From the IMG/VR virus record IMGVR_UViG_3300034066_002191: a stretch of 64,000 bases of DNA; one strand, 5' to 3'. The position numbers were made by a program, and so were the translations under genes. This stretch comes from a virus. Shown one piece after another: positions 421-19,319 of this stretch (position 1 is its first letter; every line of letters starts with the position of its first letter). A model generated the notes under the pieces. That model saw only the letters and a list, made by a program, of their open reading frames with translations. It searched no databases and was not told the origin of the DNA.

Positions 421-646
421 ACTTATTTTTGTAATCTGTTGTGCTGTAATTGGATTTGTTGGAATCAACTTCATTGCTTGCAATTTTATGGTCCCAGGTA
501 CAATCAATAGTGCTAATGTAAAAGGAGATCTAAAAAATCCCCCTCCTTTGGACTGCAAAGAATCCGAAAGAAGGGGATACGAAACACTTTTGACAATTTT
601 AACTACAGTGATTGCATTGAGAACTAAAGTCGAAGATAGCGATTAA
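314..646 (+). CDS. membrane protein, holin-like candidate
   Basis: SD GAAGGAG at 301-307; two hydrophobic segments (LIFVICCAVIGFVGINFIAC, YETLLTILTTVIAL); convergent with the lysozyme. Confidence 0.6.
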   Translation: MKEEDLNQKDNSQKSSDSSEDLPSVVGKKHGSLLNKLIFVICCAVIGFVGINFIACNFMVPGTINSANVKGDLKNPPPLDCKESERRGYETLLTILTTVIALRTKVEDSD

Positions 647-1134
647 GACATCCAGAGTTTTCCTTCCGCAGTTCTTCTTCTTGCCAATCCAACTTCAACT
701 TTAGTTCCAGGATTACGATAAAGATAAAGAGCATCAGGTACTTTATCCCATTCTTTATTCTCCAGAACTCTGGTTATAGTATTAAAATTAGAAGATCCGT
801 AGAAGCGAGCACCCAAATTATAACTAAAACTCAAAAGTGCTCCTTGTTGATTTTCATTCATTTCACTCCAATGTGGGATTCTTTGTAAGTGCGGAAGAAA
901 TCTTTGTTCAATATCAAAGATTAAAAGTTTATCGGCATACTCTTGAGTAATTTTTTTTCCTATCTTAAATGGTTGTCCATTAAAATCTTTAGTGCTTCCC
1001 CATCCAATAGTAATTGGCAATCCTCCCGTTAATGGGTCTGGATAAGCGTTTAAATGACAACCCTCAAACTCCTTTATTAATTCAATACCAACTAACGAAA
1101 CATTATTAGGGTTAGTTGGCGTTTCTACTTTTTT
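643..1134 (-). CDS. GH24 phage lysozyme (muramidase) domain, probably expressed as a -1 frameshift fusion to the upstream peptidase
   Basis: GIELIKEFEG..AYPD..TIGWGST catalytic motif, ALLSFSYNLG, GLARRR; no ATG start upstream of the domain. Confidence 0.9.
   Translation of the reverse strand, partial: KKVETPTNPNNVSLVGIELIKEFEGCHLNAYPDPLTGGLPITIGWGSTKDFNGQPFKIGKKITQEYADKLLIFDIEQRFLPHLQRIPHWSEMNENQQGALLSFSYNLGARFYGSSNFNTITRVLENKEWDKVPDALYLYRNPGTKVEVGLARRRTAEGKLWMS
1087..1134 (-). other. programmed -1 ribosomal frameshift signal
   Basis: A_AAA_AAG (1134-1128), then TAG, 7-nt spacer, hairpin GCCAACTAAC/GTTAGTTGGT (1120-1087). Confidence 0.75.
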
Positions 1135-1823
1135 GCATCGAAAATTCTTCCCCACCCATCATTACCTTTTGGAACCCACCTACGAGAAAGATCAGTTCTC
1201 TTATAGACAGCACCCTTACCATTAGTTACTGCACCAGTATAACCATCATTCAAACTCCCAAATGGATCATTAACAACATAATCACCACTAGGTGTTTTAC
1301 CAATCACAACTACCATGTGTCCTCCTGTGGGGTTAGATATAGGACCGCGATGAAGAATGCCAATAACAACAGGTCTATCAGCGGCAAGCTCTCTATCAAG
1401 ATCAGCAAAAGTAAGGCTGTAGGAAAAACTGGATTTAATGCCATATGACGCAAGAACCTTAGTCTGAACCAAGTGATCAGTGGTGTCACCGATTGAGAAA
1501 ACTTTTTGTACATAGGCATCGTCGCCTTTATCTCCTTTTAGTGTACCAGGTTTGAAATACTCAAGGCACATCGCACAGGCAGAAGAGTTGCAAGTTCTAT
1601 TTGCATCTCTATAGTTATCTGTCTGTGGATAGAAAGGAACAGGTAAAATTGATGATTTAGGTTTGTCTTCTTTAGTTCTAAAAATTCTCACCCAATTTGC
1701 ATTATCTTGTATCAACTCTTGTGCTTTCAGTTGCAAATCTTTTTCAAGTTGTTCAACCGCTGCAACATGCTTTGGATTTTTTTCATCATAAAACTTAAAA
1801 AAGTTATGAAGATCTATAAGCAT
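1125..1823 (-). CDS. C39-like cysteine peptidase (endolysin N-terminal module)
   Basis: Q..RTCNSSACAM (Cys), GGHMVVVIG (His), VVNDPFG (Asp). Confidence 0.85.
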   Translation of the reverse strand: MLIDLHNFFKFYDEKNPKHVAAVEQLEKDLQLKAQELIQDNANWVRIFRTKEDKPKSSILPVPFYPQTDNYRDANRTCNSSACAMCLEYFKPGTLKGDKGDDAYVQKVFSIGDTTDHLVQTKVLASYGIKSSFSYSLTFADLDRELAADRPVVIGILHRGPISNPTGGHMVVVIGKTPSGDYVVNDPFGSLNDGYTGAVTNGKGAVYKRTDLSRRWVPKGNDGWGRIFDAKK

Positions 1824-1824
1824 T

Positions 1825-1983
1825 TTAATACCTAAACTCGTCTAATCTATCTAGCAATTCATTTAAGTGTCTATTCGCTAATGCCTTTGGATCACTTGTG
1901 TAATATGATTCAGATAAAAGTTTGTGTTTTTGCTTCAATATTAGAACTTTAATCTCATCTTTTGTTATTTGATTTCTTGGCAT
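1825..1983 (-). CDS. hypothetical protein (52 aa, MPRNQITKDE...)
   Basis: Translated by hand; stop codon lies 1 nt before the peptidase start. Confidence 0.7.
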   Translation of the reverse strand: MPRNQITKDEIKVLILKQKHKLLSESYYTSDPKALANRHLNELLDRLDEFRY

Positions 1984-2019
1984 AAACAAAAAAACTCCGC
2001 TTCTTATTTAGAAGCGGAG
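1984..2019 (-). terminator. intrinsic terminator whose loop carries the late promoter CTAAATA
   Basis: 10-bp stem CTCCGCTTCT/AGAAGCGGAG, loop AAATA, U-tract. Confidence 0.8.
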
Positions 2020-2318: not shown

Positions 2319-2609
2319 TCACAGATTTTCTTCCTGTTCAGTGAGAATCACACAGTCACTAGTTGGATATGCTGTGCAAGTGAGAATAAACCCACCAGCA
2401 AGCTGATCATCATCAAGAAAGGTTTGATCTTCATTATCTACTGTACCAGAAATAAGTTTACCAGTACAAGCAGAACAAGCACCAGCACGACAGGAAGAAG
2501 GCAGATCGATTTCTGATGCTTCAGCAGCGTCTAGAATATATTGATCTTCAGGACACTCAAAAGTAGTCTCAGTGCCGTCAGGAGATTGTAGAGTAATAGT
2601 ATAATTCAT
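2319..2609 (-). CDS. petF: plant-type [2Fe-2S] ferredoxin
   Basis: [13 protein letters not shown]...LTC motif. Confidence 0.97.
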
Positions 2610-2695
2610 TCGTAAGTTTTTGATAGTTGATTTACAGAGTGTGCTAGTAGTACAAAGAATGCAATACTAGTTACGGTAAAGATAACTTCAGTCAT
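2606..2695 (-). CDS. small single-TM peptide (29 aa, [20 protein letters not shown]...)
   Basis: Translated by hand; start and stop overlap both neighbours. Confidence 0.55.
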
Positions 2696-2904
2696 CAAAA
2701 GATACCAAAGAAAAGTTTGCCAGTGAGAGCATAAGAGATGATACCAGAAACGACACCAATCATTGCCCAACGAGAATTCGCTTTTTCTGCCTTCACAGCA
2801 TAAGGTTCAAACCCATAACGCTCAATATCTTCTTGGGACATCCACATTGTTGGTTCTTTGGCAAACATATTCATTTGGCCAAATTCATTTTTTGTAACGG
2901 TCAT
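2695..2904 (-). CDS. hli: high-light-inducible protein
   Basis: AEKANSRWAMIG...TG motif. Confidence 0.88.
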   Translation of the reverse strand: MTVTKNEFGQMNMFAKEPTMWMSQEDIERYGFEPYAVKAEKANSRWAMIGVVSGIISYALTGKLFFGIF

Positions 2905-2931
2905 TTATTTTTTGTAAAGTTTTACAACAGA

Positions 2932-2960
2932 ATTATATAGGAAGGTGGGGGACATGTCAA
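2932..2960 (-). promoter_or_regulatory. sigma70-type promoter for the hli-petF operon
   Basis: TTGACA-N17-TATAAT, perfect consensus. Confidence 0.85.
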
Positions 2961-2978
2961 GCCCCCCATGTCACGAGA

Positions 2979-4445
2979 TCAGAACTTGAAGGTCGTCTGG
3001 ATTACGCCACCCCAGTTGGAATCGTTGTTAGCAAGACGCTGATTGTCACTACCGTAAATGATAGCAGGAGTAATGCTGATGTTATCGGACACTTGATACT
3101 TATAGAAGATTTCAAGAAGAGTGGACTTCTCAAGGTTCTCACCAGTAGGAGCTTGACCGATAGCAACACCAGCAGAGTTGCCATCAACAAACACATCATC
3201 CCAAGTTAGACCAGCAAACCAGGACTGACTATTGGTAGCATCACTTTGGGTGCCACTTACAGTGTTCCAACCATAACCTGCGGAGATGGAAGGTGCCCAA
3301 CCAGATTGGGTGGGTTCCCAGTATGCGTTGATGGCATAACCGTTAGAAGTTTGACCAGGAACCAGAGTACCTGATGCGCCGTTCAGACCATTGTAGGTAC
3401 GAACACGGGTGCCTTCAGTACCATAACGATAACCGAAAGCAGCGCCCCAGTTGGTGCCACGATAACCAATCTGTGCCAGAGTGTTTAGAGCGCCAGAACG
3501 ATCAAACTCACCAGTGGAACTATCGCTGCCGTTTTGTGCAACATAGTTTACACCAGCAACAAGACCTGTCTTCTTACCATATTGGATACCGAAACCAGAA
3601 CCAACTGCTTTGTTATAAACACCAGGAGCACCTGCTACTTGGAAGAAGTCAAGGATCTTAGATTCATATGCTGAAGGAACCCAAGCAATTTCAGTGTTGC
3701 GAACAAGAGCACCGGCAGTGATAGTTGTGGTGTTATTGAATGCAGGGAATGAATAGTACAGACGGTCAATAACTACATTGTTACCAACTTCACTGGAAGT
3801 GTTGTCTGCTTTATCCAGTTTGAAAATTGAAGAACTTGAACCAAAAGGATTGCTGCTGAAGTTAGCAGAACGCAGACGAGTGCGAAGCAGATCCTTACCA
3901 GTGAATGAAGTATCCAGGTTCAGACGCAGATCATAGTTAAATGCAGTGTGGGCAATATCACCATCTTTAGTTTTGTAATCATCAACACCACCGATTACGA
4001 AGTTTGCTTCACCACGAAGTTTAGTAGTGGTAGAGAACTGTTGTGCTTCAAGTGTAGTGACTTGTGCTTCCAGTTTGTCTACACGACCACGAAGAACAGC
4101 AAGTTCTTGTGCGAATTCTGCCTGAAGTCGCTTCAGTTCATCAGTAACTTCAGTCACACGATCCAGACATGCATTCAGAAGTGCTGCTGCCTCATAGCGA
4201 GTCATTGCACGACCACCACCAAAGGTTCCATTGGGATAACCAGCAACGCAACCATAACGCTCTACAAGGTTGCTGAGTGCCTGATATGCCCAATCGGTAG
4301 GACGAACATCAGAGAATTGAGTGATGCTAGTGACCTGGTCTTGTGAATATTGATTTACTCCAGATGTGAGGTCAGCAGCCATCGCTGCAGGAGCAACAAT
4401 ACCTAAAGCAACAGGTGCAAGCATCAGTTGTTGAAAAAATTTCAT
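2979..4445 (-). CDS. cyanobacterial outer-membrane porin (SLH domain + OprB-type barrel; Som/iron-uptake porin family)
   Basis: Signal peptide from MKFFQQ, FSDVRPTDWAYQAL..YGCVAGYP SLH motif, coiled coil, FSTTTKLRGE, C-terminal Phe. Confidence 0.92.
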   Translation of the reverse strand: MKFFQQLMLAPVALGIVAPAAMAADLTSGVNQYSQDQVTSITQFSDVRPTDWAYQALSNLVERYGCVAGYPNGTFGGGRAMTRYEAAALLNACLDRVTEVTDELKRLQAEFAQELAVLRGRVDKLEAQVTTLEAQQFSTTTKLRGEANFVIGGVDDYKTKDGDIAHTAFNYDLRLNLDTSFTGKDLLRTRLRSANFSSNPFGSSSSIFKLDKADNTSSEVGNNVVIDRLYYSFPAFNNTTTITAGALVRNTEIAWVPSAYESKILDFFQVAGAPGVYNKAVGSGFGIQYGKKTGLVAGVNYVAQNGSDSSTGEFDRSGALNTLAQIGYRGTNWGAAFGYRYGTEGTRVRTYNGLNGASGTLVPGQTSNGYAINAYWEPTQSGWAPSISAGYGWNTVSGTQSDATNSQSWFAGLTWDDVFVDGNSAGVAIGQAPTGENLEKSTLLEIFYKYQVSDNISITPAIIYGSDNQRLANNDSNWGGVIQTTFKF

Positions 4446-4514
4446 AGAAATGTTTTTGTTTGTTCTATAGGACAAAAGGTTAAGAATTGTAACAGAATTC
4501 CCAACCGAGTATTT

Positions 4515-4543
4515 ATTATAGGACGCTTCCCAAAATTTGTCAA
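4515..4543 (-). promoter_or_regulatory. sigma70-type promoter for the porin, overlapped by late ATAAATA
   Basis: TTGACA-N17-TATAAT followed by AAATA. Confidence 0.85.
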
Positions 4544-5331
4544 GCGTCTGACTTAGATGGTTCGGTAATCCGACCAAGATATGGGTCAAACGAAGTGATT
4601 TGATCTACCGTGAAATCAGCTCCTCTTTGATGCCAAAAATTTCTAATTCCATCATGACTATTACGATGAAAAATATCAATATGATCAGGATGGATTGATG
4701 AACCAAGTTCAATTTTATAGAGAAAAATTGGAGTAGCATAAGTACACCCAGAATTATAAATCAAATCATCGGCTACTGGACGAGGCTTAACTCCGTTATC
4801 AAGTTTATACTTATCCCCACGAATATGATACTTTATAAGTTTTTCTGCATGATGCCTTGTAATGACATAACAAGCAGTTGAGAAGTCATTGACAAATCTT
4901 GTATGAATTGGCACCACAATATCACCAGTACAAATGATGGCAAGTTGAATGACATCCCAACAATACGGAACTCTAGCAATAAAATCAGCCCAAGTAAAAT
5001 TCCAACAATGTGCAAGACTCATATCACAGTCATCTTCCATAATAATCGCATAAGGACTGTCAGAAGTATTATACCAGTGATTAATTGCTTTCAAATGTGA
5101 TGTAACACACCCAATTTCACCAGATGTCATCATATCTGGATACTTACCTTTAATAATGTCACTTAAATCATCATCTCTGCCATCATGCGCAGAGATTCTC
5201 ATATAATTTTCAATTTCCCAGTGTTTGAACTGAGATTCCATGTATTCCCACCTTTCTGGTTGATCGTCCAAATTAATACAGTAAACTGGACCAAAATTTT
5301 TTAGTTTGTGTGTAGATTTATTTTTTTCCAT
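4540..5331 (-). CDS. glycosyltransferase family 25
   Basis: YCINL, GEIGCVTSH, IMEDD motifs. Confidence 0.85.
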   Translation of the reverse strand: MEKNKSTHKLKNFGPVYCINLDDQPERWEYMESQFKHWEIENYMRISAHDGRDDDLSDIIKGKYPDMMTSGEIGCVTSHLKAINHWYNTSDSPYAIIMEDDCDMSLAHCWNFTWADFIARVPYCWDVIQLAIICTGDIVVPIHTRFVNDFSTACYVITRHHAEKLIKYHIRGDKYKLDNGVKPRPVADDLIYNSGCTYATPIFLYKIELGSSIHPDHIDIFHRNSHDGIRNFWHQRGADFTVDQITSFDPYLGRITEPSKSDA

Positions 5332-17174: not shown

Positions 17175-17250
17175 TCCGGATACTCAGATTTGAACTGAGA
17201 TTATTCCTGCTCCCAAAGCAGGTGCCATGACCAAGTTAGGCGATATCCGG
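17175..17250 (-). tRNA. tRNA-Pro(UGG)
   Basis: CCTGC-TT-TGG-GA-GCAGG anticodon arm, TTCAAAT T-loop, 7-bp acceptor. Confidence 0.92.
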
Positions 17251-17259
17251 GAATTTAAG

Positions 17260-17376
17260 CTATTTATTATTTGAGTGTATGAACATAATACCAAAGATAG
17301 GAACCATTGTCAAGAGAAAACAAAGAGTTCCTAAAAATAGACTATTGTTTAATAGTGTTCCAATCAGATGTCCCAT
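17260..17376 (-). CDS. small membrane peptide (38 aa)
   Basis: Translated by hand: MGHLIGTLLNNSLFLGTLCFLLTMVPIFGIMFIH. Confidence 0.55.
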   Translation of the reverse strand: MGHLIGTLLNNSLFLGTLCFLLTMVPIFGIMFIHSNNK

Positions 17377-17486
17377 TCTTCTTTTTCGTCTTCATAAGTA
17401 CATGGTTCTTCAAAGAGTTCAATCATTTTTTGCTGTAGAACTCTGTGTTGCAATTTTTCTATATCTTCTTCTGTTAATTTAATCAC
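17364..17486 (-). CDS. hypothetical protein (40 aa)
   Basis: Translated by hand; GTG start coupled to the upstream stop. Confidence 0.5.
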   Translation of the reverse strand: MIKLTEEDIEKLQHRVLQQKMIELFEEPCTYEDEKEEWDI

Positions 17487-17641
17487 TTATATTTGCCTTC
17501 TCCTCCAAGAAATTTTTCTAGTGGATCTTTTCTTGTTTTTGATATTTCCACGGCTCTTTTATAAAACATATTATCTGTATTACCAGAAGCTTCGAATGTG
17601 GCTTTTATTTTTAACCAATTTTCGTATGTCCGTTGATCCAT
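17483..17641 (-). CDS. hypothetical protein (52 aa, MDQRTYENWLKIK...)
   Basis: Translated by hand; TTGACA-N16-TATAAT upstream (17692-17665). Confidence 0.65.
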   Translation of the reverse strand: MDQRTYENWLKIKATFEASGNTDNMFYKRAVEISKTRKDPLEKFLGGEGKYK

Positions 17642-17709
17642 TAGAATATATCATATTATCACTAATTATAATTGGTAAATTCTCAGTGTCAACCATATGT
17701 CACGAAATC

Positions 17710-18081
17710 TTAATAACCGTGATTGGTAATAGTTTTCGTGTACTTCCTTAAAATCTCTCCGGCTCTAGAATTTGCTTCATTTTCGCATTCACTTCCGGTT
17801 TCTCCGCTCATTTCTTTTCCACTTTGTTTTTGATGATAATGTACAAGTTCATGCGCAAGAGTCCTATAGACATCTAATGGATGTCTCTGTGAAGTCTGAA
17901 TTTTGATTTCGTCCGTGCCAAGATTAAAACAACCAAAAGTCTTATTGTCAATAGAGAACTTGGGGTCATCTATTACAATAACTTTTGGTAAAGTAGATAA
18001 CCCAAGTTCATCCTTGACAAAATTCATAAAATCTTTAACCTGAACTTTTTTTGATTCAGTAAGAAACTCTTTAAATCTCAT
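17710..18081 (-). CDS. HExxH zinc-metallopeptidase-like late protein
   Basis: TLAHELVH, ENEAN; ATAAATA upstream; MRFKEFLTE N-terminus. Confidence 0.75.
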   Translation of the reverse strand: MRFKEFLTESKKVQVKDFMNFVKDELGLSTLPKVIVIDDPKFSIDNKTFGCFNLGTDEIKIQTSQRHPLDVYRTLAHELVHYHQKQSGKEMSGETGSECENEANSRAGEILRKYTKTITNHGY

Positions 18082-18103
18082 GAGTTTTTTATGTATTTAT
18101 GAA

Positions 18104-18185
18104 CGGAGAATAATAGAATCGAACTATCAGGTGTTATCCCGGCATCGTTTTCAAGACGATTTACCGACCATCGGTGCTATTCTCC
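18104..18185 (-). tRNA. tRNA-Ser(UGA), non-canonical (8/4-type) cloverleaf
   Basis: ATCGT-CT-TGA-AA-ACGAT, long variable arm, G73, GGAGAATA/TATTCTCC acceptor. Confidence 0.8.
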
Positions 18186-18198
18186 ACATGTATGGGCA

Positions 18199-18450
18199 TT
18201 ACTTAACTTCAAAATCCAATCTACGAATTTTTCTTTGCCTTCTGGCCTCTTGCCACATAATATCTTCATTTGTCAAGACTCTAGTAGATTCTTTTTGATT
18301 ATAAGAATTCAACATTACTATCCTAGACAGATCTACTGCTGATATTTTATCGCCTTTGATGGTTGCCATATTTGAGCACCCACAAGATCTCGATTGCCCT
18401 GGATGTTCTGTCACCTCAGTATTGCATTCTTTGCATCTTATTTTTAACAT
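18199..18450 (-). CDS. hypothetical Zn-ribbon protein
   Basis: CKEC...CGC. Confidence 0.75.
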   Translation of the reverse strand: MLKIRCKECNTEVTEHPGQSRSCGCSNMATIKGDKISAVDLSRIVMLNSYNQKESTRVLTNEDIMWQEARRQRKIRRLDFEVK

Positions 18451-18544
18451 TTTGATTCATTATGAATTTATTTGATTTTATTATTTATCATTAAAAACTC
18501 ACCTTCTTATGGGGAAGGTGAGTGAAAAATGCTGTTAAGGATCA

Positions 18545-18615
18545 AGCGGGCAACGAGGATCGAACTCGTGACTGGAGCTTGGAAGGCTCAGATGTTACCG
18601 CTACACCATGCCCGC
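18545..18615 (-). tRNA. tRNA-Gly(UCC)
   Basis: GAGC-CT-TCC-AA-GCTC arm, GCGGGCA/TGCCCGC acceptor; promoter TTGACA-N17-TATAAT at 18656-18628. Confidence 0.93.
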
Positions 18616-18652
18616 AGTAATAAGGGAATTATACCCTATTTATGATTTTATG

Positions 18653-18841
18653 TCAAGGGTTCTTGTGTACTACTTCAAGATCAACACCAATAGCACGAAG
18701 CCAAGTATTTACATTTTCCATAAGAAATTCATCATCTGGATTTTCAAAGTTAATACGAATATCACGAATTGTGTCATGATTATCATTCCTAGAGGAATAA
18801 CTAAGATCATAAGAAACATTCAAAACTTGTTTTTTGGCCAT
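18653..18841 (-). CDS. hypothetical protein
   Basis: 62-aa ORF between tRNAs. Confidence 0.6.
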   Translation of the reverse strand: MAKKQVLNVSYDLSYSSRNDNHDTIRDIRINFENPDDEFLMENVNTWLRAIGVDLEVVHKNP

Positions 18842-18880
18842 AATTATTCAAAATACAATAAAGAGATAATTAATATCTCA

Positions 18881-18960
18881 TACTCGAAACAGGAATCGAA
18901 CCTGCAAGCCGAAGCGGTTGATTTTGAGTCAACTGTGTATACCAATTCCACCATTCGAGC
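18881..18960 (-). tRNA. tRNA-Leu(CAA)
   Basis: GTTGA-CT-CAA-AA-TCAAC, variable arm with TTCG loop. Confidence 0.92.
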
Positions 18961-19037
18961 TGGCGTCTCAGGTTGGATTCGAACCAACGGCTAACCGCTT
19001 AGAAGGCGGATACTCTATTCCACTGAGTTACTGAGAC
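18961..19037 (-). tRNA. tRNA-Arg(UCU), CCA encoded
   Basis: CCGC-CT-TCT-AA-GCGG; promoter TTGACA-N17-TATGAT at 19074-19046. Confidence 0.93.
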
Positions 19038-19075
19038 ATAAGACAATCATAAGACATTCATCTTAGATTGTCAAG

Positions 19076-19149
19076 TGGAAACACTGGGGATTGAACCCAG
19101 AACCTCACGCTTATAAGGCGTGTGCTCTAACCAGTTGAGCTATGTTTCC
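19076..19149 (-). tRNA. tRNA-Ile(UAU)
   Basis: CACGC-CT-TAT-AA-GCGTG; promoter TTGACA-N17-TATAAT at 19187-19159. Confidence 0.9.
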
Positions 19150-19187
19150 GATAGGGTAATTATACCATATAAAAGATGAAATGTCAA

Positions 19188-19262
19188 TACCCGTGGTGGG
19201 ACTCGAACCCACACTGTATAGATTTTAAGTCTACTGTCTGCTGCCAATTGGACTACACGGGC
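19188..19262 (-). tRNA. tRNA-Leu(UAA), short variable loop
   Basis: GTAGA-CT-TAA-AA-TCTAT; promoter TTGACA-N17-TATAGT at 19336-19308. Confidence 0.88.
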
Positions 19263-19319
19263 ATAAACTGAATTTAATGAACTTAAATCCCTTGGACCAA
19301 CAAGACAACTATACCACAT

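Follow-up and report, generated by a model that had tools for sequence, protein, structure and literature searches.

How does a phage translate a conserved lysozyme that has no usable start codon of its own? The question is raised by a stretch of 64,000 nucleotides (nt), here called the window, from a T4-like cyanomyovirus (Kyanoviridae; IMG/VR record IMGVR_UViG_3300034066_002191), in which the open reading frame (ORF) of a C39-like peptidase, read on the minus strand, ends directly behind a slippery heptamer and a GH24 lysozyme follows in the -1 frame. Most likely, as judged from sequence comparison, the lysozyme is translated only by way of a -1 slip at the end of the peptidase gene, both in the window and in about 65 distinct relatives, and we assign a probability of roughly 85% to the reading of the junction as a conserved -1 programmed ribosomal frameshift of the dnaX/IS3 type. 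The closest records to the window are the Synechococcus phages S-SRM01 and S-PM2 (~72% nucleotide identity across the locus), and lake-water metagenomes contain DNA near-identical to it. The features of the locus, with the source of each in brackets, are as follows.

1125..1823, minus strand: Peptidase_C39_2 ORF with an ATG start, 232 amino acids (aa), 0 frame, the predicted short product (ORF listing)
1668..1823, minus strand: N-terminal helical module, residues 1-52, in both predicted products (modelled self-association interface)
1153..1155, minus strand: GTG in the -1 frame, the sole common start codon ahead of the lysozyme (ORF listing)
1147..1153, minus strand: Shine-Dalgarno-like purine stretch GGGGAAG, 12 nt 5' of the heptamer (sequence)
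1128..1134, minus strand: slippery heptamer A_AAA_AAG, an X_XXY_YYZ pattern in the peptidase frame (sequence)
1125..1127, minus strand: 0-frame stop TAG, adjoining the heptamer (sequence)
1121..1127, minus strand: spacer of 7 nt between heptamer and hairpin (sequence)
1087..1120, minus strand: hairpin, candidate stimulator, with a 10-bp stem and a 14-nt loop (sequence and folding)
643..1128, minus strand: -1-frame segment, a 9-residue linker and GH24 lysozyme of 161 codons plus stop, the C-terminal part of a predicted 393-aa product (Pfam PF00959)

The peptidase ORF ends ...TTC GAT GCA AAA AAG TAG, and the -1 frame across this end translates as C-K-K-V-E-T-P-T-N-P-N-N before running into the lysozyme, which terminates at a TAA stop at 645..643. 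The predicted fusion would be 232 + 161 = 393 aa long. The two arms of the stem, GCCAACTAAC (1120..1111) and GTTAGTTGGT (1096..1087), form nine Watson-Crick pairs and one G-U pair, and the 60 nt past the heptamer fold with a minimum free energy (MFE) of -12.0 kcal/mol (z -2.0 versus shuffles). Both coding regions match known domains: Pfam PF13529 Peptidase_C39_2 matches the upstream ORF (9.9e-13, 49.3 bits, cut-off 24) and PF00959 Phage_lysozyme/GH24 matches the downstream frame (2.2e-22, 80.1 bits, cut-off 22.3), which has the catalytic Glu of the E-F-E-G motif. In addition, the 405 positions of phrog_3617 cover the peptidase on 1-235 and the lysozyme on 229-404, and because this one profile spans both ORFs, a fused protein family exists. 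A preliminary description of this DNA had already given the peptidase 3' end, heptamer, stop, spacer, stem, GGGGAAG stretch and -1 frame; on re-reading, its coordinates were exact, its product sizes of 232 and 393 aa were arithmetically correct, and the ORF listing bore out its statement that the lysozyme lacks an ATG and has the GTG at 1155 as its sole alternative start.

Conservation of the junction among relatives

Three queries recovered 185 IMG/VR loci, which were reduced to 130 non-redundant junctions and classified by script. In 65/130 junctions, hereafter the frameshift class, a slippery heptamer (63 A_AAA_AAG and 2 T_TTT_TTT) is combined with a -1-frame lysozyme that lacks an ATGA start. 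A heptamer together with an ATGA start was found in 6/130, an ATGA overlap only in 15/130, an in-frame lysozyme in 17/130, a -1-frame lysozyme with neither heptamer nor ATGA start in 1/130, no detectable lysozyme downstream in 19/130, a lysozyme upstream of the peptidase in 6/130 and a +1-frame lysozyme behind an inserted gene in 1/130. With the layout of heptamer, stop and hairpin recurring in 65 of 130 junctions, its occurrence is beyond chance. The heptamer abuts the 0-frame stop in 55/65 of the frameshift class and precedes it by 3 nt in 8 and by 6 nt in 2.

Start codons are scarce in this class and the lysozyme is well preserved. Ahead of the lysozyme homology, 46/65 junctions have no ATG, GTG or TTG, and in 52/65 a stop closes the -1 frame one codon 5' of the heptamer. 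The start-less lysozyme nevertheless appears to be under purifying selection: every complete ORF is intact (62/62, 155-172 codons), the catalytic Glu is kept in all 62, and the median ratio of nonsynonymous to synonymous substitution rates (dN/dS) is 0.20. The heptamer itself gives the pattern of a site under selection at the nucleotide level. Its A-site Lys codon is AAG in 63/63 A_AAA_AAG junctions, compared with 32% AAG for Lys elsewhere in these ORFs, and its first A is retained even though the codon in which it holds the wobble position varies among five (GCA, GTA, ACA, GAA and ATA).

The purine stretch upstream, GGGGAAG, sits within the codons of an invariant G-W-G-R motif that is also found in non-frameshifting loci; as a possible signal it is inseparable from this coding constraint, and its conservation is therefore uninformative on a stimulatory role.

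Laboratory phages S-PM2 and S-CAM7 are among the frameshift-type relatives. The S-PM2 junction reads GAT GCA AAA AAG TAA and is followed by a start-less lysozyme in the -1 frame; that of S-CAM7 reads GTT TTT TTT CCA CAG TAG, and its lysozyme is likewise in the -1 frame. In both records the lysin annotation begins at an internal ATG, giving a 72-aa 'putative lysin' in S-PM2 (L002:1557-1775) and a 'lysin' in S-CAM7 (L005:1359-1631), so that these fragments span 72-90 aa and 240-270 nt of conserved lysozyme coding sequence are left unannotated. S-SRM01 retains the heptamer, yet has an ATGA overlap start, and its annotation holds two 'endolysin' genes (L001:601-1763). Peptidase and lysozyme are separate genes in DSL-LC02, with a lipoprotein-like ORF (MKKVFALIFLASISS...) inserted between them (L004:1237-1620), and S-CREM1 has the reversed domain order. 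Loci L029, L040-L045 and others have an ATGA-coupled gene with the start MTI(N/K)F(L/I)DA... and an extra module of ~55 aa that stands before the lysozyme domain or replaces it.

A covarying hairpin downstream of the heptamer

Folding of the 60 nt past the heptamer separates the junction classes. The 65 frameshift-class junctions have a mean MFE of -15.8 kcal/mol (z -3.4), with values of -12 or below in 57/65 and a stem that begins 0-9 nt past the heptamer in 63/65. The means are -7.4 kcal/mol (z -0.26) for the class with heptamer and ATGA start and -6.7 kcal/mol (z -0.45) for the ATGA-only class; the hairpin is therefore present exactly where the lysozyme is without its own start.

Stem sequences vary by lineage, with arms GCCAACTAAC/GTTAGTTGGY, AATCAACAYCAC/GTGGTGTTGATT, CGACATCACA/TGTGGTGTCG, AGCTCTACT/AGTAGAGCT, AGTTCTATTCC/GGAATAGAACT and GTAGAACC/GGTTCTAC. 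Covariation was counted in the two lineages that align well, A2 and A3, with 500 shuffles and with partners slid by 1-3 columns as controls. In A2 (22 sequences), 97.5% of cells are paired and double changes occur in 3/9 pairs, whereas slid partners are paired at 21-59%; in A3 (20 sequences), 95.0% of cells are paired and double changes occur in 4/11 pairs, against 33-51% for slid partners. The covariation score was reached by 0/500 shuffles in either lineage. The 3' arm codes for the start of the lysozyme domain (G-V/I-E/D-L) and the 5' arm for the variable linker, and synonymous or conservative changes in the 3' arm have their counterparts in the 5' arm. An alignment of homologous loci, which the preliminary description had proposed as a check, thus finds heptamer, stop and hairpin kept and the stem changes compensatory.

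We note that a pseudoknot in the window (1087-1127, minus strand), pairing GAAAC after the stop with GTTTC in the loop, was judged unlikely: its zero-length connecting loops are sterically implausible, and the pairing is lost in the related stems L007, L048 and L061. An Rfam scan of 950-1300 returned sub-threshold chance matches only and no curated frameshift element.

Proposed mechanism

The locus has the parts of a -1 programmed frameshift cassette, namely the heptamer, an open -1 frame leading into conserved and otherwise inexpressible coding sequence, and a covarying structure. The preliminary description had proposed a -1 frameshift that makes a short peptidase and a longer peptidase-muramidase, and conservation, covariation, the lack of start codons and selection all favour that proposal. 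With the hairpin 7 nt further on resisting unwinding, a ribosome at A_AAA_AAG would have tRNA-Lys in both its P and A sites. Termination at the neighbouring TAG, with release of the 232-aa peptidase, would be the outcome for most ribosomes; a fraction would shift back by one base, re-pair on AAA_AAA and read on through ...DAKK-VETPTNPNN..., a short linker, into the GH24 lysozyme to complete the 393-aa protein. The slip would presumably take place on the ribosome, and its efficiency would set the amount of muramidase. With the slip as the sole route, muramidase would be made only as a C-terminal extension of the peptidase. Both domains probably cut peptidoglycan at lysis.

The window encodes seven tRNA genes at 17175-19263 on the minus strand (Pro-TGG, Ser-TGA, Gly-TCC, Leu-CAA, Arg-TCT, Ile-TAT and Leu-TAA). 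As tRNA-Lys is not among these seven, the proposed frameshift would depend on host tRNA-Lys.

Alternative explanations

A junction of this kind could be trivial, a homopolymer error of sequencing or assembly or a recent frameshifted pseudogene, and homopolymers are indeed error-prone, with seven A's present in two metagenomic contigs. Seven A's in the window would mean a plain in-frame fusion, as the preliminary description had pointed out. However, three independent lake-metagenome studies yielded assembled contigs identical to the window over 1123-1162, with six A's and no indel reported in the run, which argues against a homopolymer error. The sole variants beside the run are G>A at 1135 and 1140 (plus strand); they give TTT GAT GTA AAA AAG, a form common in relatives that closes the -1 frame by TGA. 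The run is also identical in the original S-PM2 record and a later deletion-mutant genome, and likewise in three S-CAM7 isolates. Moreover, one frame relation is common to 65 distinct junctions, no +1 split occurs without an inserted gene, and the lysozyme is intact with its low dN/dS, so that artefact or decay has a negligible probability. Transcriptional slippage is another proposal, in which the polymerase adds one A to the A6 run and standard translation of the resulting A7 subset of mRNAs yields the fusion. In its favour, the run is a homopolymer in which an extra A restores the frame, as in the natural A7 variants L030 and L111; but the run has only six A's and is not a long homopolymer, and bacterial transcriptional slippage has been described on runs of 9 A/T (PMC5009743). 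The seventh base is G in 63/63 junctions though AAA is the commoner Lys codon, whereas slippage would favour a longer run, and a covarying hairpin 0-9 nt on is a hallmark of ribosomal stimulators with no role in polymerase slippage. The single metatranscriptome contig that crosses the run also has six A's, a weak point because contigs show the majority form only. We therefore regard slippage as improbable, though somewhat less so in S-CAM7, whose T8 run comes nearer to the lengths that make bacterial polymerases slip.

There might also be no fusion at all, if the lysozyme were translated separately, either from the GTG at 1155 or by termination-reinitiation at the peptidase stop. That GTG is open in the window, a GTG, TTG or ATG also lies close to the junction in ten further relatives, and phages with an ATGA overlap, such as S-SRM01, are clearly able to express the lysozyme from a gene of its own. 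Against this stand the 46 relatives with no such codon and the 52 in which the -1 frame opens one codon 5' of the heptamer and is hence closed past the position of the GTG, a result that goes against the independent initiation at 1155 that the preliminary description had raised. In the closest relatives, L007, L008, L009 and L010, whose peptidases are 90-93% identical, a stop lies between the GTG position and the heptamer. The GTG is a by-product of Gly-Trp codons GGG TGG, being composed of the last G of the Gly codon and the TG of the invariant Trp codon, and the hairpin is lost where loci have their own ATG. Separate translation as the general explanation has accordingly only a slim chance, and the GTG at 1155, which is not kept as an open start in relatives, does not represent the conserved mechanism, though some independent initiation may occur there in this phage alone.

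Several points nonetheless weigh against a ribosomal frameshift. The window, unlike most relatives, keeps the open -1-frame GTG 21 nt 5' of the heptamer. A_AAA_AAG is shifty in Escherichia coli on the condition of a single tRNA-Lys(UUU), which the phage's host may or may not share. The evidence consists of assembled contigs, which are blind to minority A7 transcripts, and the frameshift is deduced from comparison. Finally, a T8 run such as that of S-CAM7 shifts ribosomes poorly in E. coli (PMC5009743), and the S-CAM7 site may work differently.

In-frame fusions and evolution of the junction

Uninterrupted peptidase-lysozyme proteins are encoded by twelve marine-type loci and by the ACG-2014f group. 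The junction of these natural fusions, ...GWGRIFDAKVE(E)KK..., aligns with the predicted trans-frame product ...GWGRIFDAKKVE.... Two IMG/VR contigs, L030 (2160-2260) and L111, have seven A's (GTA AAA AAA GTA GAA) and so encode the exact predicted fusion, with the hairpin kept; they may be genuine single-base reversions to a plain fusion or else homopolymer assembly errors. Gains and losses were followed on a quick tree with midpoint root and Shimodaira-Hasegawa-like approximate likelihood ratio test (SH-aLRT) support only, so that counts from it are rough. L030 is placed among six-A loci with 99% SH-aLRT. A clade of 17 loci is mostly in frame and has the S-CAM7 pair with its T-run nested within it, suggesting that a frameshifted junction arose a second time, independently. 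A clade of 110 is mostly A_AAA_AAG, with scattered shifts to ATGA-coupled genes, lysozyme loss and domain reordering. Loci with a heptamer and an ATGA start, which lack the hairpin, look like intermediates.

S-CAM7 (L005:1100-1150) and L168 share the T8 run (T_TTT_TTT) and the hairpin GTAGAACC/GGTTCTAC; this site may possibly use a different, perhaps transcriptional, mechanism. The ACG-2014f group (L006:1100-1190, from ACG-2014f_Syn7803US26, with L088 and L089) has GCA AAA AAG in frame within the fusion ORF and a hairpin, GGAGGGTAAGTTGCCCTCC, 5 nt past the heptamer at -16 to -20 kcal/mol. Its -1 frame meets a stop after one codon (AAA AAA GTC TGA), and a slip would therefore yield the peptidase alone, comparable to the short product of E. 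coli dnaX. This heptamer and hairpin are confined to a narrow clade (>=95% identical), the 12 other in-frame loci being without a heptamer, and may be due to chance.

Protein structure and predicted self-association

The peptidase was modelled with AlphaFold2 from a 101-sequence alignment (predicted local distance difference test score (pLDDT) 86, predicted template modelling score (pTM) 0.71). Foldseek matched the model to papain-like cysteine peptidases, among them the C39 domains of PCAT1 and ComA, the C39-like 3erv of Bacillus anthracis, staphopains, the phytochelatin-synthase-like Alr0975 and the pseudomurein endoisopeptidase PeiR (E 2e-5 to 6e-3). Residues C78, C83, H169 and D186 are invariant in the 101 sequences. 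The profile score, papain-like fold and conserved Cys and His place the protein in Peptidase_C39_2, and the profile score and catalytic Glu likewise place the downstream domain in GH24. Because the peptidase is fused to a muramidase, it probably cleaves peptidoglycan peptides. A PDB sequence search with the peptidase profile gave no match at E up to 1, and an NCBIfam search gave nothing for the peptidase. The full-length natural fusion L030, modelled from a 16-sequence alignment, was too poor to use (pLDDT 65, pTM 0.39).

A two-copy model of the peptidase scored 0.63, compared with 0.00 for the best of 3 controls, with an interface limited to residues 1-52; the runs share at least 97% of contacts, with a partner pLDDT of at least 83. 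The mark for the complex score is reached by 20/30 known one-chain pairs and 1/23 single-chain proteins, which is a rough guide as our own alignment was used. The model supports, and does not show, self-association of the peptidase through its N-terminal module. Since this module is carried by both predicted products, short-long heteromers are possible.

A tentative and rather doubtful extension is that the frameshift sets the stoichiometry of a heteromeric endolysin, in which the short and long forms would pair through the 52-residue N-terminal module and the slip rate would fix the number of muramidase heads per peptidase assembly. Selection would then act on the product pair and not on the gene layout, and lineages could arrive at the pair by opposite routes. 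In most lineages a slip would give the long form, in ACG-2014f it would give the short form, as in E. coli dnaX, and S-CAM7 would have acquired its T-run site independently.

Relation to known systems

The same product logic is found in IS3-family elements such as IS911 and IS150, in which A_AAA_AAG and a downstream structure yield the short OrfA from unshifted ribosomes and the OrfAB fusion from shifted ones; the proteins and biology are unrelated to those described here. A conserved -1 frameshift in the tail assembly chaperone genes G/GT of double-stranded DNA phages also makes a short and a long protein, in a ratio believed to be important. Its slippery sequence in lambda is G_GGA_AAG, tail chaperones are usually without a stimulatory hairpin, and their function is in structure and assembly. 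G/GT thus shares with the present locus a phage -1 frameshift and two proteins with a common N-terminus, but differs in slippery sequence, hairpin and function. Endolysins with two products are known from Enterococcus phage Lys170, Clostridium CD27L and CTP1L and staphylococcal 2638A, where an internal in-frame start is used and the isoforms can co-assemble. Isoforms of the Lys170 type arise by internal initiation and have a common C-terminal wall-binding domain, whereas recoding at the present locus would give a common N-terminal module and peptidase; its two frames differ by -1, and its isoforms would have a common N-terminus, which sets it apart from the internal-initiation endolysins.

The tau/gamma frameshift cassette of E. 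coli dnaX is a further close counterpart (for a review, see PMC5009743). It shares A_AAA_AAG, a stem-loop a few nt downstream, a possible upstream Shine-Dalgarno-like element and two products with a common N-terminus. In dnaX, however, the slip leads to the short product through a -1 stop one codon later, whereas here it is the long product that would depend on the slip, and the 0-frame stop directly follows the heptamer; dnaX is also a polymerase subunit gene, in contrast to a phage lysis-enzyme gene. The reversed dnaX layout is reported for a few bacteria (PMC5009743), and the stimulator of IS911 is a three-way junction (PMC5009743), compared with the simple hairpin here. Among cyanophages, the ACG-2014f-type fusions (phrog_3617) have homologous domains with which the trans-frame product aligns, and as single ORFs they require no recoding. 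The lysozyme-peptidase fusions of the S-CREM1/S-CBP type (phrog_10051) also have homologous domains in single ORFs, in the opposite domain order.

The mechanism is textbook, and the gene family and biological use are not described in the literature that we found. Full-text literature searches returned no description of a frameshift in a cyanophage endolysin or any other, and the word endolysin is absent from the available part of a large 2016 recoding review (PMC5009743). If true, this would be the first phage lysis enzyme, as far as we found, to be made by a programmed frameshift. The finding would correct a long-standing annotation error in the model cyanophages S-PM2, S-CAM7 and S-SRM01, and would offer a compact, easily mutated system for studying the dosage of wall-degrading activities at lysis by cyanophages, which are major agents of cyanobacterial mortality. 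The natural series of in-frame, frameshifted and separate genes also bears on how recoding sites arise and vanish.

Genomic neighbourhood

A 54-aa ORF of phrog_566 (unknown function; 1825-1989, minus strand) ends 1 nt ahead of the peptidase ATG. Further upstream on the same strand, at 2319-4589, are an hli-like gene, ferredoxin (petF) and a 536-aa porin-like ORF, and the S-SRM01 annotation also has a porin gene in the corresponding region.

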